Source: Spirochaetia bacterium (GTDB lineage: Bacteria > Spirochaetota > Spirochaetia > CADAEX01). From it: a stretch of 64,000 nt of DNA. The stretch spans positions 1-64,000 of the forward strand of contig CAXXHA010000032.1 in the NCBI GenBank assembly GCA_963662265.2. The letters are read 5' to 3'. The position numbers and the translations under genes were made by a program. Positions 1 through 12,164 of this stretch are shown one piece after another. Numbering within the stretch: position 1 is the stretch's first letter; each line of letters starts with the position of its first letter. The notes under the pieces were generated by a model that was not told where the DNA came from, made no database searches, and saw only the letters and a list, made by a program, of their open reading frames with translations.

Positions 1-287
1 AACCTTTCTCAGCACTTGATGCTATTACAAGAGAATCGATACAGGATCTGCTTCTTGAAATTCTTTCAGAAAGGGAAACAGGATCCCTGATCGTAACCCA
101 CAGTATTGAAGAGGCTGTTTTCCTTTCCTCTTCGATTTATATCATGCCCCCCTCCCCCCATGAAGGCTTCAAAAGGAAGATTGAAAATCCCTTCGGTTCG
201 GGGGGGCATTCCAGAAAATCTGAAATATTCTTTAAATGCTGCCTGGAAGTCAGGGAAATTATGGAGAAATATTCTGGAAACAGCTGA
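1..287 (+). CDS. ABC transporter ATP-binding protein, NitT/TauT family (3' part, truncated by window start)
   Basis: Not in the ORF track. Frame 3 reads PFSALDAITRESIQDLLLEIL...LIVTHSIEEAVFLS, i.e. the D-loop (SALD) and H-switch (VTHSIEEA); stop TGA at 285-287. Confidence 0.9.
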   Translation, partial: PFSALDAITRESIQDLLLEILSERETGSLIVTHSIEEAVFLSSSIYIMPPSPHEGFKRKIENPFGSGGHSRKSEIFFKCCLEVREIMEKYSGNS

Positions 288-315
288 TCTGTACATTACA
301 GCGGTAAATATACTG

Positions 316-921
316 ATGCACTCAGGCGCAACTGTTCTCCGTATTGCAGCAGCAATACTTCTATCGACAATTACAGCAGTACCTGCAGGAATATGTCTCG
401 GATTATCAGGAAAATGGAAAAGCTTCTTCAGTCCCCTGGTTTACATCCTCTACACAGTACCGAAAATATCTGTTTATCCTCTTGCTATAATACTTCTCGG
501 CCTTAACAGCAGGGCGGCAGTGTTTATAATGTCTCTTGTACTTTTTTTTCAGATACTGATTGCAGTGAGAGACAAAAGCAGCAGAATAAGCAGGCAATAC
601 TTCCTGTCGCTTGCATCCATAGGGGGGAGAAAAATGGATAACCTCCGATACATAGTAATCCCCTCTGTACTTACTTCCTATTTTACAGCTCTCAGGATAG
701 GAATATCTGCAGCCATTGCTGTGGCCTTCTTCACAGAATCAGCTTCCCCCTCATCATACGGACTTGGTAATTTTGTAATGACAAGCTGGTCAATAATTGA
801 CTACCCGATGATGGCAGCCGGGATAGCAGCTACAGCTGCTGTCGGTATTGTTCTTTATTCCATAGCAGGATACCTGGAAAGAAGATTTGTCCCGTGGGGC
901 AGAACAGGTAAAAAATATTAA
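316..921 (+). CDS. ABC transporter permease, NitT/TauT family (start uncertain)
   Basis: Hydrophobic protein with LYTVPKISVYP, an EAA-like loop (LASIGGRKMDNLRYIVIP) and TES...GLG. The track start at 106 overlaps the ATPase, so ATG 316 or CTG 274 is more likely. Confidence 0.8.
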   Translation: MHSGATVLRIAAAILLSTITAVPAGICLGLSGKWKSFFSPLVYILYTVPKISVYPLAIILLGLNSRAAVFIMSLVLFFQILIAVRDKSSRISRQYFLSLASIGGRKMDNLRYIVIPSVLTSYFTALRIGISAAIAVAFFTESASPSSYGLGNFVMTSWSIIDYPMMAAGIAATAAVGIVLYSIAGYLERRFVPWGRTGKKY

Positions 922-996
922 CAAATCCTCAACTGGAAGCAGGCCGGCACAAAAATATACAAGCTTCCATTTACATAGAGCCCGGAGTATAAGCTG

Positions 997-1734
997 TCAT
1001 AGTGTTTTCCACCTGCACAGCCATTTCTCAAGAAGATCAATTGAAACATAGAGGATAAACACTGACAGGGAGAGAACTGTGATCCCTGAATAAAGATCAA
1101 TATAATCAAGCCTCAGCCATGCATCCATTATGTAGTATCCCATTCCTTTTTCAGTCCCGTAGTACTCGATAAAAAAAAGGACTGCGCATGATATTCCCGC
1201 AGATATCTTGAGAGATGTTAATATATCAGGGAGAGAATAAGGGATTATTATATTCCTCACAGATCCCCATCTGTCCCCACCTATCGAATAATATGAAATG
1301 AAAAATTCCTCATTTATTTCCTTTATGCTGTCTCTCGCCGAAACAGCTGACGGAAAAAAAACAATGATAAAAATCAGAATTATCTTTGACAGCTCGCCTG
1401 TCCCGAAAAGAATCATCAGTAGAGGTATTAAAAGCACTTTGGGGATTGGAAAAATTGCATAAAAAAGGGGGGCTGTCAGGTTATCAACAGATCTGTTTCT
1501 CCCTGCAAAGAAACCGGCGGAAAACCCGGTCAGCGCGCCCAGAGTAAAACCTGAGGCAAGCCTGAAAAAAGTTGCTGCAAGGTGCGGCAGAGGGTGTCTG
1601 CCTGATAAATCAGAAAGGTTTTGCAATATTTTACCGGGAGGGGGGAGCAGCGGAGTATCTGAAGCTGCAGACAAGACCTGCCACACTGAAGCGATAAACA
1701 GCAGAGCCAGTATCGTCCCGGTAATTTTTCTCAA
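997..1734 (-). CDS. ABC transporter permease, NitT/TauT family
   Basis: LLPPP after TM1, PIPKVLLIP, EAA-like loop SIGGDRWGSVRNIIIP, IEYYGTEKGMGYYI; TTG start abuts the SBP stop. Confidence 0.9.
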   Translation of the reverse strand: MRKITGTILALLFIASVWQVLSAASDTPLLPPPGKILQNLSDLSGRHPLPHLAATFFRLASGFTLGALTGFSAGFFAGRNRSVDNLTAPLFYAIFPIPKVLLIPLLMILFGTGELSKIILIFIIVFFPSAVSARDSIKEINEEFFISYYSIGGDRWGSVRNIIIPYSLPDILTSLKISAGISCAVLFFIEYYGTEKGMGYYIMDAWLRLDYIDLYSGITVLSLSVFILYVSIDLLEKWLCRWKTL

Positions 1735-2673
1735 TTATTTTCCTTTTTTATCAACTCTGTATGATGATTTCAGAATATCTTCTGCTGACAGTGAACTTTC
1801 AACAAGATCCCGTTTTTTCAGCCATTCGAGAACATTTTCCATTTCAGGATAGCCGGGTACTTCAGCTTCAGGGTAAAACGGTATCTCGATAATTCCTTTG
1901 ACAGGAGGCGGGAATCCTATTTCAGAGATAATACTGTCAATCCACTCGTTCTGATCAGTACTGTTTATATATTCACATGCCCTGTTATAGGCTGTGTAGA
2001 ACCTGTCCAGCAGTTTATCGTTCTTTTTCACAAAATCACCCTTAAATATCATTACAGCAGGTTCAATCAACAGGTTGTCTGTCATATCAATCACCTTACC
2101 CCCTTTGCTGACAGCAAGGGATGCAAGAGGTTCCGGCAGGAGAGCTGAATCCAGTTTCCCTTCATCAAGCATCTGGAGCCGTACAGGCATCTGGGGAATT
2201 ACAACCTTTCTGACAAAATCGGGATCTGAGCCCCTCTTTTCGAGTATCCTGTCCGCGGCATATTCAATTATAGTGTTTCTTGATATACCGATTGTCCGGT
2301 TTTCAAGCCCATCAACTGAATTTATATCAAGACTGCCTGATGCCACTATCCGGTATGACCCTGTAGTTTTTGATGTCACATCAATGTCAAACCCGCTGTT
2401 TTCAGCAAATGCTGCAGAAAGAAGGTCTGAACTCACGCCGTTGACACTGCCGGAAAAGAAAGCAGTATCCCTGTCTTTGGCGCTTCTGTAGTATTCAATT
2501 TCAACATCAAGCCCCTCATCCATGAAATATCCGTTGATATCAGCGACAGCAAACGGTATTGAATTGAGATCAGGAAGAAGTGCAATCCTGACAGCCGCTG
2601 TTTCGTTTTTTCCGCTGCCGTAAAGCGGCATCAGGGCTGAAAAAACTATCAATACAAATATAATTTTTTTCAT
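1735..2673 (-). CDS. ABC transporter substrate-binding protein, NMT1/SsuA/THI5-like fold
   Basis: Signal peptide MKKIIFVLIVFSALMPLYGSGKNE, GYFMDEGLDVE and GKLDSALLPEP motifs; GGAG RBS before ATG 2673. Confidence 0.88.
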   Translation of the reverse strand: MKKIIFVLIVFSALMPLYGSGKNETAAVRIALLPDLNSIPFAVADINGYFMDEGLDVEIEYYRSAKDRDTAFFSGSVNGVSSDLLSAAFAENSGFDIDVTSKTTGSYRIVASGSLDINSVDGLENRTIGISRNTIIEYAADRILEKRGSDPDFVRKVVIPQMPVRLQMLDEGKLDSALLPEPLASLAVSKGGKVIDMTDNLLIEPAVMIFKGDFVKKNDKLLDRFYTAYNRACEYINSTDQNEWIDSIISEIGFPPPVKGIIEIPFYPEAEVPGYPEMENVLEWLKKRDLVESSLSAEDILKSSYRVDKKGK

Positions 2674-2677
2674 TAAA

Positions 2678-3247
2678 TCAACTCCATTCATCTGTGAGGT
2701 TATTTTCTATATCAAGTGCAGATAGTATCCGTCCTGCAATAAAATCGACAATTTCACCAATTGAGGCAGGTTTGAAGTAAAACCCGGGGGAGGCAGGGAG
2801 AATGATACCTCCCGCATCATGAAGTTTCAGCATGGCCTCAAGATTTATCCTGCTGTATGGACTCTCCCTCGGAACAACAACAAGTTTCCTCCCCTCTTTA
2901 AGCGTTACAGAGCAGGCCCTCCCGAGAAGATTATTAAGTGATCCTGATGCAATCCCGGACAGTGAAGTCATGCTGCAGGGAACAACAGCCATGCCGTCGA
3001 ACCGGAAAGACCCGCTTGCAACAGGGGCAAAAAGGTTGTCAACTTCATGCATGACAATACTGCCTGCTTTCAATAAATCTGAAAAATGATTATCCAGATT
3101 TTCCCCTGTTTCGAATTCAACCACCTTTTTCCCGTTGTCTGTTGCAATTACATGGACCTGGATACCATGATTTACAAGCTCCCTGATTACTTTTATTCCG
3201 TAAATACTGCCGCTTGCTCCTGTTATACCGATAACTATTTTTTTCAA
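2678..3247 (-). CDS. ubiX: UbiX family flavin prenyltransferase (MqnM-like)
   Basis: GITGASGSIYG, ASGSF, VVPCSM, KEGRKLVVVPRESP and PASPGFY are the UbiX signatures. Confidence 0.95.
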   Translation of the reverse strand: MKKIVIGITGASGSIYGIKVIRELVNHGIQVHVIATDNGKKVVEFETGENLDNHFSDLLKAGSIVMHEVDNLFAPVASGSFRFDGMAVVPCSMTSLSGIASGSLNNLLGRACSVTLKEGRKLVVVPRESPYSRINLEAMLKLHDAGGIILPASPGFYFKPASIGEIVDFIAGRILSALDIENNLTDEWS

Positions 3248-4110
3248 TTAATCCCTCCGGAAAAATAAACATCGCAAAATGTGAAAACAAGAAACAGGAC
3301 ACCGATAAGCTTGTTTATACTGTATGATGCTGTCTCTATTTTGTTTTTCCTTCTCCAGGCAATAAAGTGCTCTGTAAAAAGAAGAACAAGAACAGAAGCT
3401 GTTCCAACATGGAAGAAGAGTCCCCTCTTTTCCATAAATGAAAAAACAAACAGAAACAGGATTGTAAGAATATGACTTCCCGCAGACACAAACATACTCA
3501 CCCTTTTCCCGAACATTGCAGGGACAGAATAGAGATTCTCCTGCCTGTCAAAATCAGTATCCTGCGTTGAATAGATTATGTCAAATCCGGAAACCCAGAG
3601 CGCATTTGCAGATGTCAGCACAAGAGAACTCAGGCTGATACCTCCTGTTACAGCAATCCATGCACCAAGCGTTCCCCCTGCGCAGGCAGCTCCCAGAATC
3701 AGGTGGCTGAAAAAGGTAAAACGCTTCGAGTATGAGTAGAGTATAAACACGAATCCTGCAAGTGGAAGCAGATAGAAACACAGGGGCCGGAGGAGCCATG
3801 CAGAGGCAGCAAGAACTACCCCGGACAGGGCAGTAACTGCATAAGCTTCTTTCATACTGACTCTGCCTGAAGGTATATGCCTTCCCCTGGTCCTCGGGTT
3901 TTTAGCATCAATATCCCTGTCAATTATCCTGTTAAGTGCATTTGCAGCTGTCCGGGCGCCTGTGAATGCTGCTGTTATCAGTATAATTACAGGAAGTTCA
4001 GGTACCCTGTTTCCGGCAAGCAGCATTGAAGCAAGAGTAAAAGGAAGGGAGAAAAGGGTATGGGAGAACATAACCATCTCACCGTAGTTTTTAAGTCTCT
4101 TAAAAACCAT
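3244..4110 (-). CDS. ubiA: UbiA-like polyprenyltransferase (MqnP type)
   Basis: FSHTLFSLPF, NRIIDRDIDAKNPRT (first Asp-rich motif), YSYSKRF, GFDIIYSTQDTDFD; start overlaps the ubiD stop after a GGAGG RBS. Confidence 0.93.
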   Translation of the reverse strand: MVFKRLKNYGEMVMFSHTLFSLPFTLASMLLAGNRVPELPVIILITAAFTGARTAANALNRIIDRDIDAKNPRTRGRHIPSGRVSMKEAYAVTALSGVVLAASAWLLRPLCFYLLPLAGFVFILYSYSKRFTFFSHLILGAACAGGTLGAWIAVTGGISLSSLVLTSANALWVSGFDIIYSTQDTDFDRQENLYSVPAMFGKRVSMFVSAGSHILTILFLFVFSFMEKRGLFFHVGTASVLVLLFTEHFIAWRRKNKIETASYSINKLIGVLFLVFTFCDVYFSGGIN

Positions 4111-5539
4111 ATTCCTCCCACCGTTCATCCACCATCTTTTTGATATCGCTGCTCATTTCAATATCACCGGGCCATTCCCTGTTGTGCCCTTCTTCCCCCC
4201 GTTTCACAGTAGCATCTATACCCATCCTGTTGCCGAACAGGGGATGGGGAGAAGCATGGTCAAGCGCATCAAGAGGTCCTTCCGTAATCACGATATCACG
4301 TTTCGGATCAATATTATTGAATACCTTCCATGCGACTGTTGAGAGGTCAGAAGGATCTATATTTTCATCAACAACAACTATCATCTTTGTATACATCATC
4401 TGCCCCATTCCCCAGAGAGAATACATGATCTTTTTCGCATGACCCGGGAACTGCTTCCTGATAGATACGATTACGCAGTTATGGAAAACCCCTTCCAGGG
4501 GAAAGTTTATATCAACTATTTCAGGACACTGTATTTTAAGGAGGGGGAGAAAAATCCGTTCAGTCGCCTTCCCGAGGAAACAGTCTTCCATGGGAGGTTT
4601 GCCCACTATTGTGGCAGGATAAACAGGTTTTTTTCTCCTTGTTATTTTTTCAACATGAAAGACAGGGTACATCCCCTTGAGTGAGTAATAACCTGTATGG
4701 TCTCCAAACGGCCCCTCTTCCCTGAGAGGTTCTGCCGGATCCACATATCCTTCCAGCACAAACTCCGCGTTGGCCGGAACCCGTATATCATTAGTAATAC
4801 ACTTTACAGTTTCGACAGCCGACTTTCTCAGGAAACCGGCAAACATCATCTCATCGATAATCGGGGGAAGCGGGGCTGTGGCCGCGTATATAAGCGCGGG
4901 GTCTGATCCGAGGACAACAGAAACAGGCATGATTTCTCCACGCTTTCTGTATTTCTCAAATATCGATGAACCATCTTTATGCTTGTGCCAGTGCATCCCT
5001 GTCGTGTTCTTTGAATATACCTGCATCCGGTACATCCCCATATTCTGCTGCCCTGAATCAGGATCTCTTGTTATCACGAGGGGAAGCGTTATAAACCGCC
5101 CGCCGTCTTCAGGCCAGCAGTGAAGAACAGGTAGGGCTGACAGGTCGCAGTCTTCAACAACTTCCTGGCATATCCCTTTTGCAACATTTTTCGGAAAAAC
5201 AGAGATCATTCTGGAAAGGCGGGGAACAGCCTTGATCTTATCCAGGAGAGACATGTACCCTGAAACATTAATAAGTTCTTCGATATCTGAAGCGATCTGT
5301 TCAATCGATTCAACTTCAAACGCGAGATTCAGTTTATCGTAACCTGCAAATGTATTAATAAGAACAGGGTAATCAGAGCCTTTCACATTGGTAAAAAGAA
5401 GAGCCTCGCCCCCCTTTTTCACAGTCCTGTCTGCAATTTCTGTTATCTCAAGATAACTGTCAACCTCAGCATCTATCTGCCTGAGAAGCTTGTTTTTTCT
5501 CAGGATTTCGGCAAAATGCTGTAAGTCCCTGTATGCCAT
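4100..5539 (-). CDS. ubiD: UbiD family prFMN-dependent decarboxylase (menaquinone biosynthesis decarboxylase, MqnL type)
   Basis: EGPFGDHTGYY, WPEDGGRFIT, GMHWHKHKDG, GKPPMED and LDHAS motifs. Confidence 0.95.
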   Translation of the reverse strand: MAYRDLQHFAEILRKNKLLRQIDAEVDSYLEITEIADRTVKKGGEALLFTNVKGSDYPVLINTFAGYDKLNLAFEVESIEQIASDIEELINVSGYMSLLDKIKAVPRLSRMISVFPKNVAKGICQEVVEDCDLSALPVLHCWPEDGGRFITLPLVITRDPDSGQQNMGMYRMQVYSKNTTGMHWHKHKDGSSIFEKYRKRGEIMPVSVVLGSDPALIYAATAPLPPIIDEMMFAGFLRKSAVETVKCITNDIRVPANAEFVLEGYVDPAEPLREEGPFGDHTGYYSLKGMYPVFHVEKITRRKKPVYPATIVGKPPMEDCFLGKATERIFLPLLKIQCPEIVDINFPLEGVFHNCVIVSIRKQFPGHAKKIMYSLWGMGQMMYTKMIVVVDENIDPSDLSTVAWKVFNNIDPKRDIVITEGPLDALDHASPHPLFGNRMGIDATVKRGEEGHNREWPGDIEMSSDIKKMVDERWEEYGF

Positions 5540-5886
5540 AATTCACCCCTGTCTGCTTGTTTTCTGTTTACGGGCAGCTTGAGAAAACTCTCTTCTGCAG
5601 TTTTTCCAACTCAGTTATTCGCCCTCAAGGCGTTTTCACCTCAGTGGGGCCTGACGAAAAAACATAGCTTTTCATGCTTCCCTTGTAATAAAGACCTGAA
5701 ATTAAACACAGTGCTTTATCTTATAGTAATGATATTATTAAAAACAACTGATAACGTACCTGATATTAAAGAAGAATAAGATCAATATTACCATAATTAT
5801 TAATTATATATACTTATTTGCGTTTTTTTCCGTATTATCGCTTAAAGATAAAATTTTTTAAGATAATTTCGATATGGGGAGATAAC

Positions 5887-7914
5887 ATGGAGAAAACAAA
5901 TATAGTAGTCCTCGGCGGAGGGTATGCAGGAATAGAAACTGCGAAAGTGCTTTGCAGAAAATTCAGGAAAAAAAAGAGTATCAGCATCACGCTTATTGAT
6001 AAAAACACCTACCATACCCTTATGACAGAACTTCATGAAGTCGCGGGATCAAGGGTAGAGCCTGACTCTGTAATGGTCAGCTATGACAGAATTTTTGCAG
6101 GAACAGAAATCAATTTAGTAACAGATTTTATTACAGATATTAATTTTGAGTCAAAAGAAGTTAAATCGGAAAAACAGAGTTACCCGTATGATTATCTGGT
6201 TCTGGGAACAGGGGGAGCGCCTGAATTCTTCGATATCCCGGGAATACAGGAACACTCATTCTCTCTGTGGTCTCTTGAGGATTCAATGCGCATCAGGGAG
6301 CATTTTGAAGAACAATTCCGTCTTGCTGCAAAAGAAACAGATATTGTGAGAAAAAAGCAGATGCTGACTTTCGCGGTTGCGGGAGCAGGTTTTACAGGGA
6401 TCGAACTTGCGGGGGAATTCCTCGAAAGAAGAGATGTACTCTGCAGAAAATATCACATTGACAAATCTGATGTCAAAATAATGATAATTGAAGCGCTTGA
6501 TAAGATACTCCCGATTATTGAAGACAATTTGCGGATAAAAACAATCAATTACCTTGAAAAACATGGAGTGGAAATTCTCCTCAACACAAAGATTACCGGA
6601 GCTGAAGAAGATTCTGTAATAACAGACAGCGGAAAAAAAATCAAAACTGATACTTTCGTCTGGACATGTGGAATACATGGTTCAGAATTCACATCAAGAA
6701 TAAACCTTGCAAAGGGACACACAGCAAGGGGGGAATGCAGCTTTGCCTCTTCCGAAGGTATCCATGGAATGAAAGGCTGCAGGTTCGATGAAAACGAAAG
6801 ATATATTGTGGGGAAAAGAGGAAGGCTTCTTGTAAACGAGTTTATGCAGTCAGATGATCACGATGATGTATATATTGTCGGAGACAACATGTGGTACCTT
6901 GAAAACGGAAAGGTTCTTCCCCAGATTGTGGAAACTGCTCTTCAGACAGGCAAATGTGCTGCAGAAAACATTGCGGCAGATATAGAAAACAAAAACAAGA
7001 AAGAATTCAAATCAAACTACCATGGTTTCATGGTATCGGTCGGGGGAAGATATGCTGTTTCAAATGCGGGAGGAATCAAACTCTCCGGTTTTTTTGCAAT
7101 GGCAATGAAACATGTTGTAAATCTCCATTACCTGTTTGGCCTTGCCGGGTTAAATGCTGTATGGAATTACCTGAAACATGAGTTCTTTGATATGAAAGAC
7201 AGAAGATGCTTCCTGGGAGACCATTTATCATGGAAAATCCAGGGCTGGTGGGGAGTCCCTCTCAGGGCCTGGCTCGGAATAATGTGGATTGCAGAAGGTG
7301 TCAATAAAATAGGAGAAGGATGGCTGTCATTCTCTTCAGGAACAAAATCAGGCTGGATGTTCAGTCCGGGCATTGTACAGAAAGGGGTGGATGCAATTGC
7401 ATCAGCTTCGGAAACTGTTACAGAACCAGCTGATGCAGCAGCAGATGCGGTAAGCGCTGCATCCGGCCTTACAGAAACAGTAACACCTGTTTTCGCAAAG
7501 ATATGGGAAACAGGCAATTCAATAATTCCATATGATTCAGCATTTGTTACCTGGTTCAGGGAAACATTCATGGATAATATGATGGCATATATAAGCTATC
7601 CTTTTTTCCAGACAATGATTGTAGTTACAGAAATTGCAATCGGCCTTGCGCTGCTGGGAGGACTGTTTACATGGCTGGCAGCTGCAGCATCAATTGCAAT
7701 GTGCTTTGTCTTCACATTCTCAGGAATGTTCAGCTGGGACCAGGCATGGTTTGTTTTCGCGGCATTTTTGATGCTGGGTGGTGCAGGAAGAAGCCTTGGA
7801 ATTGACCACTGGGTAATGCCGTTAATAAAAAAGTGGTGGAACAGCACTTCTATCGCAAAAAGGACTTTTCTCTACCTCAATGAACCGGTCAGGAGAAACA
7901 GAAAAACAAAATAA
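5887..7914 (+). CDS. ndh: Type II NADH:quinone oxidoreductase with C-terminal DoxX-like membrane domain
   Basis: Two Rossmann motifs (GGGYAG; GAGFTGIELAGE), LPQIVETA, then LRAWLGIMWIAEGVNK and EIAIGLALLGGLFT...GAGRSLGID (DoxX-like). Start moved to ATG 5887 after GGGGAG. Confidence 0.88.
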   Translation: MEKTNIVVLGGGYAGIETAKVLCRKFRKKKSISITLIDKNTYHTLMTELHEVAGSRVEPDSVMVSYDRIFAGTEINLVTDFITDINFESKEVKSEKQSYPYDYLVLGTGGAPEFFDIPGIQEHSFSLWSLEDSMRIREHFEEQFRLAAKETDIVRKKQMLTFAVAGAGFTGIELAGEFLERRDVLCRKYHIDKSDVKIMIIEALDKILPIIEDNLRIKTINYLEKHGVEILLNTKITGAEEDSVITDSGKKIKTDTFVWTCGIHGSEFTSRINLAKGHTARGECSFASSEGIHGMKGCRFDENERYIVGKRGRLLVNEFMQSDDHDDVYIVGDNMWYLENGKVLPQIVETALQTGKCAAENIAADIENKNKKEFKSNYHGFMVSVGGRYAVSNAGGIKLSGFFAMAMKHVVNLHYLFGLAGLNAVWNYLKHEFFDMKDRRCFLGDHLSWKIQGWWGVPLRAWLGIMWIAEGVNKIGEGWLSFSSGTKSGWMFSPGIVQKGVDAIASASETVTEPADAAADAVSAASGLTETVTPVFAKIWETGNSIIPYDSAFVTWFRETFMDNMMAYISYPFFQTMIVVTEIAIGLALLGGLFTWLAAAASIAMCFVFTFSGMFSWDQAWFVFAAFLMLGGAGRSLGIDHWVMPLIKKWWNSTSIAKRTFLYLNEPVRRNRKTK

Positions 7915-7939
7915 GGAATACATCGGAAGCAGGAAGAAA

Positions 7940-8905
7940 TTGAAAAGTAATTTGGTCAGCAATTGTCAGCTGAAAGATAAAATTGAAAAGGTGAAAGAGA
8001 TTATTGCTCTATCATCAGAAAATTCCGCACCGCCTGTCAGGGCCTATATTTCCTCCCTCCTTGAAGGGGGAGGGAAAATGCTCAGACCTTCTTTTGTGAT
8101 CCTTGCAGCAGAATTCGGAAACCATGACAGGGACAGGATACTGAACATTGCAGCAGCCGTTGAAATGCTTCACATGGCATCCCTTGTGCATGATGATATA
8201 ATTGACAATTCAGATACAAGAAGAAACAGGCCTACAGCAATGAAACTCTTCGGAAACAAGATCAGCGTTCTTCTGGGAGATTATATCTTCTCAAAAAGCT
8301 TTGCGCTTTTAGCGGAAAACTCAATATCTGAAAACAGGGAAACATCTGCCTTGCTCATGAGCAGTATATGCGACGGGGAAATCAGGCAGAACAGCTCCCG
8401 TTTTTCTGATGATTTCAGCATGAGATCCTACAAGAGAAGAATTACTGCAAAAACAGCTCTTTTATTCATGATCAGTCTTTACCTGGGCGCTTCCGAAAGC
8501 AGTTGTTCATCCTCCCTGCTCTCTTTATTCAAAAGAATCGGATACAACATTGGAATGAGCTTTCAGATAACTGATGATATTCTTGATTATACAGGTTCGG
8601 AAAAAACAACAGGAAAACCTGCAGGAAACGACCTGAAAGAGGGAATATATACAGCTCCGTTTCTCCACTCTCTTGATACAGAGAACAGGGAACTTCGCCG
8701 GCTTTTAAAAAGGAAACCCTGGTCAAACAGTCAGAGAAAAAAAATTATAAAACTTGTTGAAGAAACCGGCGGAATTGATGAGGCTGAAAAATCAGCATCC
8801 ATATACACAGCAAGAGCATTAAGGGAAATTGACAGACTTCCTGAATGCGCCTCAAAAAATACCTTAAGGGAAATTACAGAAAGCCTTCTTATCCGCAGTT
8901 ACTGA
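7940..8905 (+). CDS. Polyprenyl (heptaprenyl-type) diphosphate synthase, HepT/DmkB-like
   Basis: GGKMLRP, HDDIID...RR (FARM), KTA, FQITDDILD (SARM), GKPAGNDL; probable TTG start at 7940. Confidence 0.92.
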   Translation: MKSNLVSNCQLKDKIEKVKEIIALSSENSAPPVRAYISSLLEGGGKMLRPSFVILAAEFGNHDRDRILNIAAAVEMLHMASLVHDDIIDNSDTRRNRPTAMKLFGNKISVLLGDYIFSKSFALLAENSISENRETSALLMSSICDGEIRQNSSRFSDDFSMRSYKRRITAKTALLFMISLYLGASESSCSSSLLSLFKRIGYNIGMSFQITDDILDYTGSEKTTGKPAGNDLKEGIYTAPFLHSLDTENRELRRLLKRKPWSNSQRKKIIKLVEETGGIDEAEKSASIYTARALREIDRLPECASKNTLREITESLLIRSY

Positions 8906-8908
8906 TTA

Positions 8909-10324
8909 TTACATACTGCGGATTCGTTTTCCAGTCCTCCCGGTATACTTGCCTACACTCTTTCCGGCAGTGGAATCATCAGAATTCCTTTTTTTCCCGT
9001 AAGAAGAATTTGATCCCCTTCTTCTCTGTTCCGGTTCAGAATCATTTCTATTAACACGTGAAGATATATTCCTTTTTCTTCTGCCCTGGTCAGAAGCAGA
9101 TATCCTGCCTTTGTTATGAGGAGAAACACTTTTTCTGCTGCCGGGTTTGCTTTTTCCTGTACTTCCCCCGCTTTTTTCAATTTCTGCTTTCAGGCTCTCG
9201 GAAACAAAATCTTCCAGAATTATTTTTTTTATGCTGCTGTTGAGATGCTTTTCAATATTCCTGAACTGATCAAGATCTTCAGAAGATATCAGTGATACAG
9301 CAGTTCCGGCCTCCCCGGCACGGCCTGTCCTTCCTATCCTGTGGATATAATCTTCAGGAACCTGAGGAAGCTGGAAATTAATAACACAGTCAAGCTGGTT
9401 GATATCAATACCGCGGGCAGCTATATCGGTTGCTACAAGAGCCTGTATTTTCCCGGTCTTGAAATTTTTCAGCGCCCGGGTTCTTGCCCCCTGGCTCTTG
9501 TCGCCGTGAATGGAATCAGAGGGAACACCTTTTTTCACAAGCTGAAGAGCAAGGCTCTGTGCCCTTCTCTTTGTTTTTGTAAATATTAAAACCTGATACC
9601 AGCCTTCATCCTTGATCAGGCGGTAAAGAAGTTTCAGTTTCTTGTCATTTTTAACAGGATATGCAGACTGGGTAACAGTTTTTGCCGCCCTGTTGTTCCG
9701 GGAAAGTTCAATTACTTCTGGATTATCAAGCATTCTGTCGGCAAGTTTTTTTATTTCGGAAGGGAAAGTGGCGGAAAACATCATTGTCTGCCTTTCTTTG
9801 GGAATATACCCGAGGATTTTCTTGATATCATTGATAAAGCCCATATCAAGCATACGGTCAGCCTCATCAAGGACAAGCATTTCAATGTTTTTCAGTTTTA
9901 TCACATCCTGATTAATGAGATCCAGGAGCCTTCCCGGGGTTGCTATCACAATATCAGTGCCTCTGTCCAGTTTCTTTATCTGGTTCTGTATATTTACCCC
10001 GCCGTAGACTTCTGTGCTCCTGAGCCTGAGGTATCTACCGTAGCTTTTCACGTTTTCATAGACCTGAAGCGCAAGCTCCCGTGTCGGGACAAGAATGAGC
10101 GCCCTCGGATGTTTTCCGCTGCTTTTCTTGCAGCTCAGCTTATCGAGAAGAGGTATTGAAAACGCAGCTGTCTTTCCTGTACCAGTCTCTGCACCTCCCA
10201 GAAGGTCGCTTCCTGCAAGCAGGGCAGGCACTGCACGGGCCTGTATAGGTGTAGGTGTTTTAAAGCCCTCTTTTTTCAGGGCATCAAGAATTGCGGCATT
10301 TATACCGAATTTTTCGAATGACAT
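8909..10324 (-). CDS. rhlE: DEAD-box RNA helicase, RhlE-like, with basic C-terminal tail
   Basis: PTPIQ, AETGTGKT, PTRELA, TPGRLLD, DEAD, SAT and HRIGRTGRAG motifs. Confidence 0.9.
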   Translation of the reverse strand: MSFEKFGINAAILDALKKEGFKTPTPIQARAVPALLAGSDLLGGAETGTGKTAAFSIPLLDKLSCKKSSGKHPRALILVPTRELALQVYENVKSYGRYLRLRSTEVYGGVNIQNQIKKLDRGTDIVIATPGRLLDLINQDVIKLKNIEMLVLDEADRMLDMGFINDIKKILGYIPKERQTMMFSATFPSEIKKLADRMLDNPEVIELSRNNRAAKTVTQSAYPVKNDKKLKLLYRLIKDEGWYQVLIFTKTKRRAQSLALQLVKKGVPSDSIHGDKSQGARTRALKNFKTGKIQALVATDIAARGIDINQLDCVINFQLPQVPEDYIHRIGRTGRAGEAGTAVSLISSEDLDQFRNIEKHLNSSIKKIILEDFVSESLKAEIEKSGGSTGKSKPGSRKSVSPHNKGRISASDQGRRKRNISSRVNRNDSEPEQRRRGSNSSYGKKRNSDDSTAGKSVGKYTGRTGKRIRSM

Positions 10325-10613
10325 ATATTACTCCATGGCTGTAAAAAACAGCCTGTTATGTGTTTTTTGTTTATTATTTCCTAAAAATATCTTTTTTACA
10401 GCTGATACAGCTTCTACAGTTACAGATGATTTTTTTGAATTTGTTTTTGAGAAATAAAGAACGGAACAGAAGTGACATCCTCCTGTATTCATATGGAAAC
10501 TAACATAATTAAAAACATTAGTACAGAGTTGAATGAATAACAGCAATAAGATTACATGCAGGGACTGTAATCTTTTTCACGAAAGACTTATTTTTAAATA
10601 TCAGGACTTGAAT

Positions 10614-11108
10614 CTACCCGTCCCACCACATTCTGTAGATAAAGCCGTCAAGCACAACACCTGATTCAACCTCAATCAGCTGTGCATTCAGAGTATAAAT
10701 ATCATCTTCCCTGTTTAAGGTACCTGTGAGTATGAGATCTGCGCCCAGATGCTTTCCAATCTGCGATTGTGTTTCTTCATCAACCAGAGATCCCATCTGG
10801 AATTTATATTCTTTCATAATCCTGTCAAGGGCCTGCCGGCTTACAACCTTGTGCCCCAGATGTTCATCACTTACAGCAGAAGCAATCTGAGAAGTAAGTG
10901 AATTGATAAGATAGTCGCTCAATTCAGACTCACTGCCGTTTTCTGTAAAGTAATAAACAGCAAGAGTTCTGTCCTCAAGGCTGTATAATCTGTCAATAAC
11001 ATCCCATGAGAGGTTTTCAACTGCCCTTTCTGAGGAGATTTCAGTTGCACATCCTGATAAAATCAATATAAGAAGTACAGCTGTATATATTAATGTTTTA
11101 TTGCTCAT
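10614..11108 (-). CDS. Lipoprotein, CsgG/FlgO/LpoB-like fold
   Basis: Lipobox LILSG-C; VVSRQALDRIMKE...QIGKHLGADLILTGT pattern typical of this fold. Confidence 0.75.
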   Translation of the reverse strand: MSNKTLIYTAVLLILILSGCATEISSERAVENLSWDVIDRLYSLEDRTLAVYYFTENGSESELSDYLINSLTSQIASAVSDEHLGHKVVSRQALDRIMKEYKFQMGSLVDEETQSQIGKHLGADLILTGTLNREDDIYTLNAQLIEVESGVVLDGFIYRMWWDG

Positions 11109-11222
11109 ATATAGCCTCCTGAATGTTTCAGATAACCTTTCACAAAAAAGTATAATTCATCAGACAGACGTTTTTCAGAAAAATAACCGGAAAAGGATTA
11201 TAATACTGTTATGAGGATTTTC

Positions 11223-12164
11223 ATGAATATACAGAAAACATATAAATTAAGGTTTCTGATAATATTATTATCCGTTTTATTCGTGACTGTATCATCATTA
11301 CATGCGCAGAAGATGTCTGAAATAAAGAATTTCACATATATTCTTCAGGCAGACAGCTTTGTAAAAAACAGGGAAAAAGCTGTTACAGAGCTTGCAGAAA
11401 CAAAAAGAGATCTCCTCATTCTTGACTACTCCTACTCGGGATATGATGAAGACAGGTGGAAAAGGAATGAAATTCTTGAAATAAAAAACAGCAGGAAAGG
11501 GCGGAAAATCATTTCATACATATCAATAGGTGAAGCTGAAGATTACAGGTATTACTGGGATAAAAAAGCTGCCTACCTGGAAAAAGAAAACCCTGAATGG
11601 GAGGGTAACTACAAGGTTTTCTTCTGGAACAGAGAATGGCAGAAAATTATTCTGGATTATATTGAAATAATCATTAACCAGGGTTTTGACGGGATATATC
11701 TCGATATAGTGGATGCATACCAGTATTTCGAATATGACAGGAAAACAGGCGAATGGATAAAAGACAGGATAAACCCGGAGACAGGAAACAGCTACCGGAA
11801 AGACATGATAGAATGGGTTACAGTAATATCAGAGTTCTGCAGAAAAAAATCTAAAGACTTCATTATTGTACCCCAGAACGGTTCTGAACTCCTTAATTAC
11901 CCGGAGTATACAGGAGTTATTGACGCAATCGGGATAGAAGACCTTTATACTGACGGGAACAGGAAACAGGACACCGAACATACTGAAAAAATACAGAAAA
12001 ACCTGGATAACCTGAAAGGAAAAAACAAACCTGTCTTTGTAACAGAATATGCAAGCAGAAAAAAATACACAGACTATGCTGCAGAAAAGAATAAGGAAAA
12101 CAGTTTCATTCTCCTTTTCACAGGCAGAGCCCTTGATAAAGCAGGAAGCAATACCCGGAACTGA
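11223..12164 (+). CDS. Secreted glycoside hydrolase, MJ1477/TM1410 family (GH114/GH166-like alpha-1,4-galactosaminidase)
   Basis: Signal peptide; SYISIGEAEDYRYYW, ENPEWEGNY, GFDGIYLDIVDAY, VPQNG and IGIEDL motifs. Confidence 0.82.
   Translation: MNIQKTYKLRFLIILLSVLFVTVSSLHAQKMSEIKNFTYILQADSFVKNREKAVTELAETKRDLLILDYSYSGYDEDRWKRNEILEIKNSRKGRKIISYISIGEAEDYRYYWDKKAAYLEKENPEWEGNYKVFFWNREWQKIILDYIEIIINQGFDGIYLDIVDAYQYFEYDRKTGEWIKDRINPETGNSYRKDMIEWVTVISEFCRKKSKDFIIVPQNGSELLNYPEYTGVIDAIGIEDLYTDGNRKQDTEHTEKIQKNLDNLKGKNKPVFVTEYASRKKYTDYAAEKNKENSFILLFTGRALDKAGSNTRN

Follow-up and report, generated by a model that had tools for sequence, protein, structure and literature searches.

The first 8905 nucleotides of contig C32 (CAXXHA010000032.1) from a Spirochaetia bacterium (assembly GCA_963662265.2) encode a compact module in which genes for the late steps of quinone synthesis share an operon with the substrate-binding protein (SBP) of an ATP-binding cassette (ABC) importer. 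The stretch analyzed, called the window here, comprises the first 64 kb of this contig, and the ten features of the module (window positions 1-8905) are listed in Table 1. The module probably serves the salvage of a quinone head group. Its likeliest ligand is 1,4-dihydroxy-6-naphthoate, the compound with which the ring-building part of the futalosine pathway ends. This reading had been put forward in a first-pass annotation of the sequence. It withstood both computational checks that could have spoken against it: no complete de novo pathway for the ring was found elsewhere in the genome, and the linkage of the SBP to ubiD, ubiA and ubiX is conserved.

The proposed route starts outside the cytoplasm, where the SBP would capture a soluble hydroxy-aromatic acid released by other microbes (likeliest: 1,4-dihydroxy-6-naphthoate). 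A NitT/TauT-type ABC importer with two permeases and an ATPase would take the head group in. The co-encoded HepT-like synthase would supply a long polyprenyl diphosphate, whose chain the MqnP-like UbiA would attach to the ring. UbiX would make prenyl-FMN, and the MqnL-type UbiD would remove the carboxyl group. Since no MenG/UbiE was found (best match in this genome: 69.3 bits, cut-off 158.35), the product would be a naphthoquinone of the demethylmenaquinone type. In the last step the type II NADH dehydrogenase with its DoxX-type membrane domain (NDH-2::DoxX) would oxidize NADH and reduce the demethylmenaquinone in the membrane. The ligand, the product and the electron sink of the module are inferred, whereas the genes themselves were assigned at the level of families, by scoring against Pfam and NCBIfam profile models with their curated cut-offs.

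No ring-building genes lie in the window, as the first-pass annotation had stated, and the same holds for the whole assembly (3.77 Mb, 41 contigs, 90.6% complete, 2.26% contaminated) at the family cut-offs. For the futalosine pathway, PF02621 (MqnA/MqnD) gave no match, while MqnC and MqnE reached at best 43.2 and 40.1 bits (cut-offs 428.1 and 434.55); no search was made for MqnB. The classical menaquinone pathway was likewise not found at the cut-offs for MenB, MenA and MenG, with MenC, D, E, F and H not searched. MenB gave no match at all, and the MenA model peaked at 72.4 bits (cut-off 102.15) on two MenA-like genes outside the window. UbiC was not found either, in a search that did not extend to ring hydroxylases or UbiG. 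Control genomes were positive as expected in each of the ring-gene searches. The pattern extends to a set of 61 related Spirochaetia genomes, this one included, where neither MenB (over cut-off) nor MqnC (at E<=1e-30) was detected in any genome. PF02621 gave marginal matches of 26-36 bits in eight of the 61, five of them on open reading frames (ORFs) that weakly match the SBP query. Among genomes of Bacillota and Thermotogota with the same gene cluster, MqnC and MenB were both missing from all 15 searched. The absence also holds for the single-contig genome G009 and for the complete chromosomes of Petroclostridium sp. X23 and Clostridiaceae 35-E11. Absence from a draft genome is not proof, but the pattern recurs in every carrier tested (13 Spirochaetia and 15 others).

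The second line of evidence is the conserved neighborhood. MqnL scores over its cut-off in 12 of the 61 Spirochaetia genomes, and in a thirteenth (G040) the gene is split over two contig ends. The SBP adjoins ubiD/A/X in 12 of these 13 MqnL-positive genomes; in the remaining one (G057) they lie about 19 kb apart. A scan with an SBP profile, restricted to one genome per species, yielded 80 loci from Spirochaetota, Bacillota and Thermotogota. At 45 of them UbiD, UbiA or UbiX (at least 100 bits) is encoded within 10 kb of the SBP. When the fetched flanks of the SBP genes are considered, UbiD is present at 41, UbiA at 43, UbiX at 37 and a permease at 55 of the 80 loci. The 45 linked loci belong to Spirochaetota, to many Clostridia (Caloramator, Brassicibacter, Thermotalea, Fusibacter, Petroclostridium, Christensenellaceae) and to two metagenome-assembled genomes, one from the Limnochordia and one from the Thermotogota. 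The gene arrangement recurs in dozens of genomes and three phyla and is not a chance juxtaposition.

The SBP phylogeny follows the same partners. In a tree of 89 of 101 rows (12 were removed because they were duplicates, contained stops or had an odd length), the window SBP falls in a clade of 76 rows with 99% support in the SH-like approximate likelihood ratio test (SH-aLRT). The clade contains 40 of the 46 SBPs linked to MqnP, MqnL and MqnM genes, which come from three phyla and include the window SBP itself, and also those of Negativicutes. In all five Negativicutes in which the ring-building marker MqnC was detected, adjacent MqnL and MqnP genes are present at another site of the chromosome or assembly; the SBP clade therefore accompanies genomes that contain MqnL and MqnP. 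In genomes where the ring markers MqnC and MenB were not found, a member of the clade adjoins the MqnL/MqnP genes.

Some of the linked clusters contain a further pair of genes. A protein of the U32 family with 620-640 amino acids is encoded beside the SBP-ubiDAX-ABC cluster in ten of the 80 loci (at least 100 bits) and additionally in L049, L054 and L059 (complete set: L049, L054, L059, L082, L107, L122, L130, L139, L143, L146, L148, L154, L155). Its best NCBIfam matches are TrhP and UbiU, both below cut-off. Wherever the neighboring gene was inspected (L049, L054, L059, L082, L148), the U32 gene is followed by that of a class-III aminotransferase. Ring hydroxylation or amination, or the processing of a different imported precursor, are candidate roles. 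The corresponding matches in this genome (contig C37) proved to be an 802-amino-acid U32 protein of the collagenase type and an unrelated aminotransferase with IclR and M20 genes as neighbors, and they were discarded as a counterpart of the pair.

The recurrence of this pair without an assigned role leaves some room for a ring that is made inside the cell, by genes absent from the assembly or by an undescribed pathway; the module would then be an ordinary late-step operon with a different role for the transporter. The incompleteness of the assembly and the marginal PF02621 matches in relatives point the same way. We consider this quite improbable, because MqnC and MenB were found in none of the carriers tested, complete chromosomes included, by searches that do detect MqnC in Negativicutes (five of six) and in the control genomes. 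Moreover, the genome studied here lacks a U32/aminotransferase pair of the linked type.

The assignment of the tail-end enzymes to the futalosine branch, which the first-pass annotation had proposed for UbiD, UbiA and UbiX, is backed by profile scores and phylogeny. UbiD passes the MqnL equivalog TIGR03701 (Table 1) over profile positions 2-432 of 433 and fails the E. coli-type UbiD model PRK10922 (422.5 bits, cut-off 788). It is 57-58% identical to the MqnL proteins of the five Negativicutes with MqnC, which in the UbiD tree (47 rows) form one clade nested among the SBP-linked UbiD sequences. E. coli UbiD stands outside, on a branch of 1.93. Among the family models UbiA passes the generic TIGR01475 (ubiA_other) only, and on the proteobacterial UbiA model it reaches 125 bits (cut-off 275). 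In the UbiA tree (49 rows, after the removal of eight of 57 that had stops or an odd length) one clade, supported by an SH-aLRT value of 96%, contains the window protein, 40 SBP-linked sequences and four rows from Negativicutes, and it leaves out E. coli UbiA and three MenA-like rows. Both trees come from quick IQ-TREE searches, and the comparison of MqnP with UbiA is coarse since a single E. coli sequence represents the 4-hydroxybenzoate enzymes in each. UbiX passes two family models (TIGR00421 and, with 190.8 against a cut-off of 188 bits, NF004685).

The same enzymes, UbiA, UbiD and UbiX, also serve the 4-hydroxybenzoate branch of ubiquinone synthesis, and an imported hydroxybenzoate has to be weighed as the alternative substrate. 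In that case, 4-hydroxybenzoate (or another hydroxybenzoate) would be converted to a polyprenylphenol, which is used as such or hydroxylated to a simple benzoquinol. 4-Hydroxybenzoate is common in anoxic habitats where plant material and tyrosine are degraded, and it would also need import here because UbiC was not found. UbiA passes TIGR01475 and fails the MqnP models, and the U32 protein beside some clusters, with its best matches TrhP and UbiU in an anaerobic ring hydroxylase family, could supply the hydroxylation. Nevertheless, this alternative is unlikely. UbiD matches the MqnL equivalog and not the E. coli model, and the clades that the window proteins share with the MqnL and MqnP of MqnC-bearing organisms exclude the UbiD and UbiA of E. 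coli. No U32 protein of the 630-amino-acid type is encoded near the module, the best match in this genome being the collagenase-type protein on C37. Finally, a polyprenylphenol is not redox-active without a hydroxylase, but the module is coupled to an NADH:quinone reductase.

The SBP is the proposed receptor of the head group. It contains a signal peptide, and all eight orthologues inspected possess either signal peptides or lipoboxes. The database form of the protein starts six codons later than the call in Table 1. Its AlphaFold model has a mean predicted local distance difference test (pLDDT) score of 91.6, and the Foldseek neighbors are TauA, SsuA, ThiY, Thi5, a thiamin SBP and PqqT, at only 13-21% identity; for TauA, SsuA, ThiY and PqqT the Foldseek probability is 1.00. 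Profile comparison with solved chains gives weak matches. Among the solved structures of the fold family is that of PqqT with bound pyrroloquinoline quinone (PQQ; PDB titles 9b1u and 9ooz), and it follows that a fold of the NMT1 type can bind a carboxylated quinone cofactor. The residues that are invariant or nearly so in 51 SBP sequences include two Arg, one Trp, one Tyr and one Phe. These conserved residues would suit an aromatic carboxylate, without proving it. The subfamily is rare, with 114 clusters at E<=1e-20 in a search of 5.8 billion; those that are named all bear generic names. 1,4-Dihydroxy-6-naphthoate appears the likeliest ligand.

The protein was also considered as a cytoplasmic enzyme of the MqnA/MqnD type, which we take to belong to the same fold clan. 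This was rejected, given the signal peptides or lipoboxes in the SBP and its eight orthologues and the permease and ATPase genes alongside.

A different cargo would leave the quinone genes in place and change only the role of the transporter: sulfonate or taurine, hydroxymethylpyrimidine (HMP) or thiamin, or flavin, taken up by a transporter that only shares a transcript with the quinone genes. Compounds of this kind are bound by every sequence or fold relative of known ligand, and the SBPs of Negativicutes do not stand beside quinone genes. For flavin in particular, UbiX needs FMN, and in some relatives the flavin-trafficking genes apbE, pplA-like and eetB-type adjoin the module. We judge such a cargo unlikely as well, to the same degree as a hydroxybenzoate. 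The SBP stays far under the cut-offs of the SsuA family (TIGR01728; 55.5 vs 163.5 bits) and of SaoX (NF040735; 20.3 vs 300 bits) and belongs to a rare, separate clade. An Rfam scan of the region at E<=1 returned chance-level matches only, with no notable family and no FMN, thiamin pyrophosphate (TPP) or other riboswitch. Linkage is to prenyltransferase and decarboxylase genes in 45 of the 80 loci and to ApbE in eight, and related SBPs also stand beside MenA-like genes, which need no flavin cofactor. The genome probably makes its own riboflavin, since lumazine synthase RibH is encoded (196.8 bits).

Several neighborhoods in Negativicutes and in Haloimpatiens were inspected (L086, L093, L092, L113, L085). 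In Pelosinus an SBP-ATPase-permease unit is followed by genes for an ABM monooxygenase, an FMN reductase and a nitroreductase, and in Haloimpatiens an FMN reductase gene lies upstream of the SBP gene. These neighbors of the quinone-reductase type may hint at a quinone-like ligand.

The first-pass annotation had described the importer as the SBP plus the minus-strand permease. Both are confirmed, but the description was incomplete, as a second permease and the 3' end of an ATPase gene on the plus strand had been overlooked. With these two, the importer consists of the SBP, two permeases and an ATPase, and NMT1 SBP, BPD_transp_1 permeases and ATPase (its last 94 residues) stand in one locus as in NitT/TauT-type systems. 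Base 1 of the window is base 1 of the contig and lies within the ATPase gene. By tblastn the fragment is 43.5% identical to residues 164-248 of the ATPase in the related locus L041. The importer genes are split over two convergent units, an arrangement shared by L041, L040/L109 and L081. Contig C27 ends in an N-terminal ABC fragment, which was considered as the missing 5' half of the ATPase gene; it adjoins an SBP of the Bmp/PnrA type and is probably part of another transporter.

The minus-strand unit was found as first annotated: five overlapping or abutting genes (ubiD, ubiA, ubiX, SBP, permease), in which ubiA and ubiD overlap by 29 nt and ubiX and ubiA by 4 nt, and the start of the first permease gene, the last of the operon, abuts the SBP stop codon. 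The second permease has an ORF that is open over 106-921; its start is uncertain, with ATG 316 as the likeliest. The divergence of this operon from ndh-doxX and the polyprenyl diphosphate synthase (PPS) gene was likewise borne out. Promoters are placed by this layout alone, because promoter-like sites, like terminator sites, are not more frequent in the region than in shuffled sequences.

Table 1. Features of the module at window positions 1-8905. Scores are in bits; where two values are compared, the second is the cut-off of the model.
Feature	Coordinates	Strand	Basis
ABC ATPase gene, 3' end (last 94 codons)	3..287	+	Truncated by contig end; D-loop/H-loop region in translation
Second TauC/SsuC-like ABC permease	316..921	+	Pfam BPD_transp_1 44.5; NCBIfam TauC/SaoP-like, below cut-off
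First TauC/SsuC-like ABC permease	997..1734	-	BPD_transp_1 79.2; SaoP 106.9 and TauC 102.8, both below equivalog cut-offs
Exported NMT1/SsuA-type (NitT/TauT) SBP	1735..2691	-	Pfam NMT1 55.4, NMT1_2 42.4; N-terminal signal peptide
UbiX/MqnM-type flavin prenyltransferase	2678..3247	-	Pfam Flavoprotein 141.8; TIGR00421 ubiX_pad 191.9 vs 108.9
UbiA-superfamily aromatic polyprenyltransferase, MqnP-like	3244..4128	-	Pfam UbiA 183.2; TIGR01475 264.6 vs 180.8
UbiD-family decarboxylase, MqnL (SCO4490) type	4100..5539	-	TIGR03701 643 vs 495.9
Divergent intergenic region ubiD / ndh-doxX	5540..5886	.	347 bp, 32.6% GC
Type II NADH dehydrogenase with C-terminal DoxX-type membrane domain	5887..7914	+	Pyr_redox_2 124; DoxX 28.7
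HepT/DmkB-like long-chain trans-polyprenyl diphosphate synthase (PPS)	7880..8905	+	Pfam polyprenyl_synt 219.3; TIGR02748 GerC3_HepT 249.9 vs 456.55

Across the intergenic region, the plus strand encodes the putative quinone reductase. Its likely start is ATG 5887 (675 amino acids), with a GGAG-type site upstream; the longest ORF, from 5818, has 698 amino acids. The translation shows the Pyr_redox_2 and Pyr_redox (46 bits) matches and two GxGxxG stretches expected of the NDH-2 family, and the identification as NDH-2 is made by family, with relatives named 'NADH dehydrogenase' in their sources. The DoxX match is weak and partial (cut-off 23.6 bits; residues 589-635 of the 698-amino-acid ORF). 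Many relatives have PF07681 in their precomputed annotation, and the C-terminal part is hydrophobic. This part has at least 779 relatives; among the best 120 of these, the named ones are all from Spirochaetia and are annotated merely as FAD-dependent oxidoreductase or NADH dehydrogenase. The protein aligns end to end, at 36% identity, with the 625-amino-acid NDH-2 of the Brassicibacter module. The loop between helices 1 and 2 of the DoxX-type domain is of low complexity and rich in Ala, Asp, Thr and Glu. Its length varies widely (relatives of NDH-2::DoxX measure 624 to 789 amino acids overall), and in a paralogue on contig C13 (L077:8545-10818) it is expanded by tandem units of about 18 residues.

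The reductase is associated with the quinone genes. The PPS gene follows that of NDH-2::DoxX in all 13 Spirochaetia loci found with it. NDH-2::DoxX itself occurs in 27 of the 61 Spirochaetia genomes, and 26 of these 27 contain a module of the MqnL type and/or the MenA-like type. Among the 34 genomes without it, only two do. The genomes are related to each other, and their numbers suggest more independence than there is. This association bears on a further alternative, in which the UbiD/UbiX pair would act in the catabolism or detoxification of imported aromatic acids by reversible decarboxylation and have nothing to do with quinones. The two families include phenolic acid decarboxylases, the VdcC and VdcB models are matched with 236 and 182 bits (under their cut-offs), and an aromatic-acid importer would fit. 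Such a function is highly improbable, as the gene for a membrane prenyltransferase lies between ubiD and ubiX in an overlapping operon, UbiD passes a menaquinone-specific equivalog, and PPS and an NADH:quinone reductase are both co-located and co-distributed.

The acceptor of the electrons may be approached through the relatives. ApbE is encoded beside the module in eight of the 80 loci, as well as in L047 and L050. In Caloramator the genes stand in the order NusG_II (which we take to correspond to EetA), PF07456, ApbE, ubiD/A/X, SBP, ATPase, permease. According to the accessible text of PMC9973259, PF07456 is the EetB family, the FAD-exporting subunit of an energy-coupling factor (ECF) transporter that often occurs with apbE. 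In Clostridiaceae 35-E11 a PplA-like gene and apbE are divergent from ubiD; PplA-like genes of relatives score 183-185 bits on NF041941, that of 35-E11 among them with 183. These neighbors in some relatives suggest periplasmic or extracellular acceptors. The analogy with the Listeria electron-transfer locus, drawn in the first-pass annotation, is backed by these genes of relatives; neither PplA (NF041941) nor the EetB family (PF07456) gave a match in this genome. ApbE is encoded on another contig (C41), but the Rnf and Nqr-like complexes of this genome account for it equally well.

The same genome contains a second, MenA-type tail end. On contig C13 (L077:6720-12655) a paralogous module encodes a MenA-like prenyltransferase (best model PRK13387, 154 vs 316 bits) and an exported protein of 254 amino acids. 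The genes of these two are divergent from an NDH-2::DoxX gene whose product is 65% identical to that of the window, followed by its own PPS and a nitroreductase gene. A genome of the same genus (the one behind L061) keeps the C13-type module, with identities of 81% and 86%, and lacks that of the window. The genome studied here holds both a MenA-type and an MqnP-type tail end. The 254-amino-acid protein (L077:7688-8452, minus strand) and its L061 orthologue both contain the sequence D-A-V-S-G-A-S, which presumably fits the ApbE flavinylation motif. No Pfam or NCBIfam model matched this protein, and the best ESM Atlas hit (0.81, to an unnamed spirochaete cluster) gave no lead. It could be a new extracytoplasmic flavoprotein that stands in for PplA.

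SBPs are also found beside MenA-like genes in other genomes. More distant members of the same SBP family (27-35% identity) adjoin a MenA-like prenyltransferase in four Spirochaetia genomes (G055, G033, G027 and G032), all without MqnL, which amounts to a second, independent pairing; the genes of G055 run PplA-like flavoprotein, MenA-like, SBP, ATPase, permease, NDH-2. The three of these SBPs that are in the tree (that of G055 is not) all fall outside the 76-row clade. An SBP importer accompanies both kinds of aromatic prenyltransferase, and SBP relatedness follows the type of this partner and not the taxonomy of the host.

Other quinone-dependent enzymes are encoded in the genome, namely an electron-transfer flavoprotein:quinone oxidoreductase (ETF-QO) and an Nqr-like cluster, and they count in favor of quinone salvage. 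On contig C14 (L076:3562-7950) a fused electron-transfer flavoprotein (ETF; 628 amino acids), the ETF-QO with a match to the ubiquinone-binding domain and a third UbiA-family protein (MenA-like) are encoded consecutively, beside carotenoid genes (phytoene synthase, desaturase, a PPS). Contig C16 (L161:6100-10278) encodes an NqrB-C-D-E-F-like cluster with NqrD over its equivalog cut-off and NqrF recognized by Fer2, FAD_binding_6 and NAD_binding_1; the region upstream showed no gene for NqrA. Contig C11 contains a separate Rnf cluster.

A number of points weigh against head-group salvage. In 35 of the 80 loci, nearly all from Negativicutes, the SBP is not beside ubiD/A/X. MqnC was detected in five of six tested genomes of such unlinked loci (the exception being Schwartzia), and since this ring-building marker is present the SBP cannot serve an auxotrophy in those Negativicutes. 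In Selenomonas the SBP gene even stands beside polyamine genes, without a permease: it follows a DUF3783 gene and precedes those of arginine decarboxylase, spermidine synthase and agmatinase. The linkage counts themselves overstate the support, because related genomes are not independent samples. As for the prenyltransferase, UbiA scores below all three MqnP cut-offs (NF041586, 249 vs 430; NF041584, 235 vs 420; NF041585, 219 vs 375 bits), and it is for this reason called MqnP-like rather than MqnP. The ligand is inferred from the gene context alone, and the solved relatives of the SBP bind sulfonates, taurine, nitrate/bicarbonate, pyrimidines, thiamin or PQQ, none of them a naphthoate. On the side of the electron sink, the search of this genome for a quinol-oxidizing enzyme gave no cytochrome bd, PplA or EetB family protein and only a 25-bit match to Succ_DH_flav_C. 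The contig is broken inside the ATPase gene, and with an assembly that is 90.6% complete in 41 contigs genes may be missing. Finally, both genomes of the same genus lack the module.

As two genomes of the genus lack it, the module is accessory, and it is probably a horizontally moving cassette. Its GC content of 42.7% exceeds that of the genome (38.5%) and that of the remaining window (39.6%), and the closest relatives of its UbiD and SBP belong to other families of the class. Downstream lie the genes for a DEAD-box helicase of the RhlE type (8909-10324, minus strand), a small LpoB/CsgG-like lipoprotein (10614-11108, minus strand) and a glycoside hydrolase of the GH114/TM1410 family (11211-12164, plus strand). 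These genes at 8909-12164 look unrelated to the module. An RhlE-like gene is also found near NDH-2::DoxX in L065 and L072.

The module can be compared to several known systems. With the flavin-based extracellular electron transfer (FLEET) loci of Listeria and Lactiplantibacillus (DmkA, DmkB, Ndh2, PplA, FmnB/ApbE, EetA/EetB) it shares an NDH-2 encoded with an aromatic prenyltransferase and a HepT-like synthase; here, a membrane-domain NDH-2 and the PPS are divergent from the prenyltransferase operon. Ndh2 of Listeria contains a membrane tail as well. In both cases the ring is not built by the host and a soluble naphthoate would be needed, as the accessible text of PMC10746273 states for FLEET. 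In contrast to FLEET, the prenyltransferase is MqnP-like and decarboxylation needs an additional enzyme (UbiD/UbiX), a feature that suggests the 6-carboxy isomer of the futalosine branch rather than 1,4-dihydroxy-2-naphthoate (DHNA). Furthermore, an SBP-dependent ABC importer is encoded in the operon, whereas the accessible text of PMC10746273 knows of no importer in the Listeria and Lactobacillus systems. The host is a diderm spirochaete, its NDH-2 has a DoxX-type domain, and PplA and the EetB family were not found in its genome. A MenA-type copy of the FLEET-like scheme is present elsewhere in this genome (C13).

Compared to the late futalosine steps, the same three enzyme families (MqnP, MqnL, MqnM) stand in one cluster, but without MqnA/C/D/E and with an importer in their place; MenG/UbiE was not found either. 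The transporter resembles the NitT/TauT importers (TauABC, SsuABC, ThiY-type) and PqqT in the NMT1/NMT1_2 family and fold of its SBP, its TauC-like permeases and its single ATPase. It differs from the solved representatives by the low identity of the SBP, its rare clade of its own and a context of quinone tail-end genes instead of sulfur, nitrogen or thiamin genes. The MenA-only DHNA auxotrophs of the gut and the mouth likewise lack the early steps, keep the late ones and need a soluble precursor from neighbors, as described in the accessible parts of PMC4746308 and PMC5738691; they use, however, the classical branch (DHNA, MenA and usually MenG). Ubiquinone synthesis with UbiA, UbiD and UbiX shares the prenylation of a hydroxy-aromatic acid and the subsequent decarboxylation that depends on prenyl-FMN (prFMN), but the window proteins fail the E. 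coli-type UbiD (422 vs 788) and proteobacterial UbiA (125 vs 275) models.

To our knowledge, no dedicated importer for a quinone head group has been described. Among the titles listed in searches of the open-access literature, none concerned an importer for a quinone head group or for DHNA, or the uptake or salvage of 1,4-dihydroxy-6-naphthoate, and no paper joined Sphaerochaeta, menaquinone and NADH dehydrogenase. L. plantarum is a quinone auxotroph in which dmkA encodes a DHNA polyprenyltransferase and dmkB a heptaprenyl diphosphate synthase, and its route of quinone incorporation 'remains to be identified' according to the accessible text (Stevens et al. 2023, PMC10746273). In the accessible text of Ravcheev and Thiele (2016, PMC4746308), the importers of soluble menaquinone precursors are said to 'remain to be annotated', and that of Fenn et al. 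(2017, PMC5738691) states them to be unknown as well. In the former, MqnP, MqnL and MqnM are predicted enzymes that accompany the Mqn pathway in all genomes having it and are absent from the others among 254 gut genomes, to which the supplementary tables may hold exceptions. Compared to the scheme of DHNA, DmkA, DmkB and Ndh2, the new elements are the other branch of menaquinone synthesis, the separate decarboxylase, an ABC importer of its own and the diderm hosts.

A wider interpretation is offered tentatively, and we hold it to be somewhat short of probable. It entails a dedicated quinone head-group importer and a cross-feeding economy, where futalosine producers leak 1,4-dihydroxy-6-naphthoate and a portable cassette makes demethylmenaquinone from it in fermentative Spirochaetota, Clostridia and Thermotogota, while the MenA-linked SBPs would do likewise for DHNA. 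The cassette would comprise the importer, MqnP/L/M, the membrane-domain NDH-2 and the prenyl diphosphate synthase, with or without ApbE, PplA and EetB. If this is true, its carriers would possess a short NADH-oxidizing electron chain, and the specificity of the SBP would track the type of prenyltransferase.

Soluble quinone precursors are growth factors and sources of electron shuttles in gut, oral and sediment communities, and their uptake is an acknowledged gap in the accessible texts of PMC4746308, PMC5738691 and PMC10746273. With the module, a specific candidate importer is available for expression and testing. Several carriers are in culture (Caloramator quimbayensis, Fusibacter ferrireducens, F. 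bizertensis, Brassicibacter mesophilus, Thermotalea metallivorans, Petroclostridium sp. X23), and the salvage idea is therefore directly testable. The module may also be used as a genomic marker for quinone auxotrophy of the futalosine branch in at least three phyla. It would extend the Listeria-type scheme of electron transfer to diderm bacteria and to the other branch of menaquinone synthesis, and it implies that many Spirochaetia held to be fermenters would carry a membrane quinone loop.

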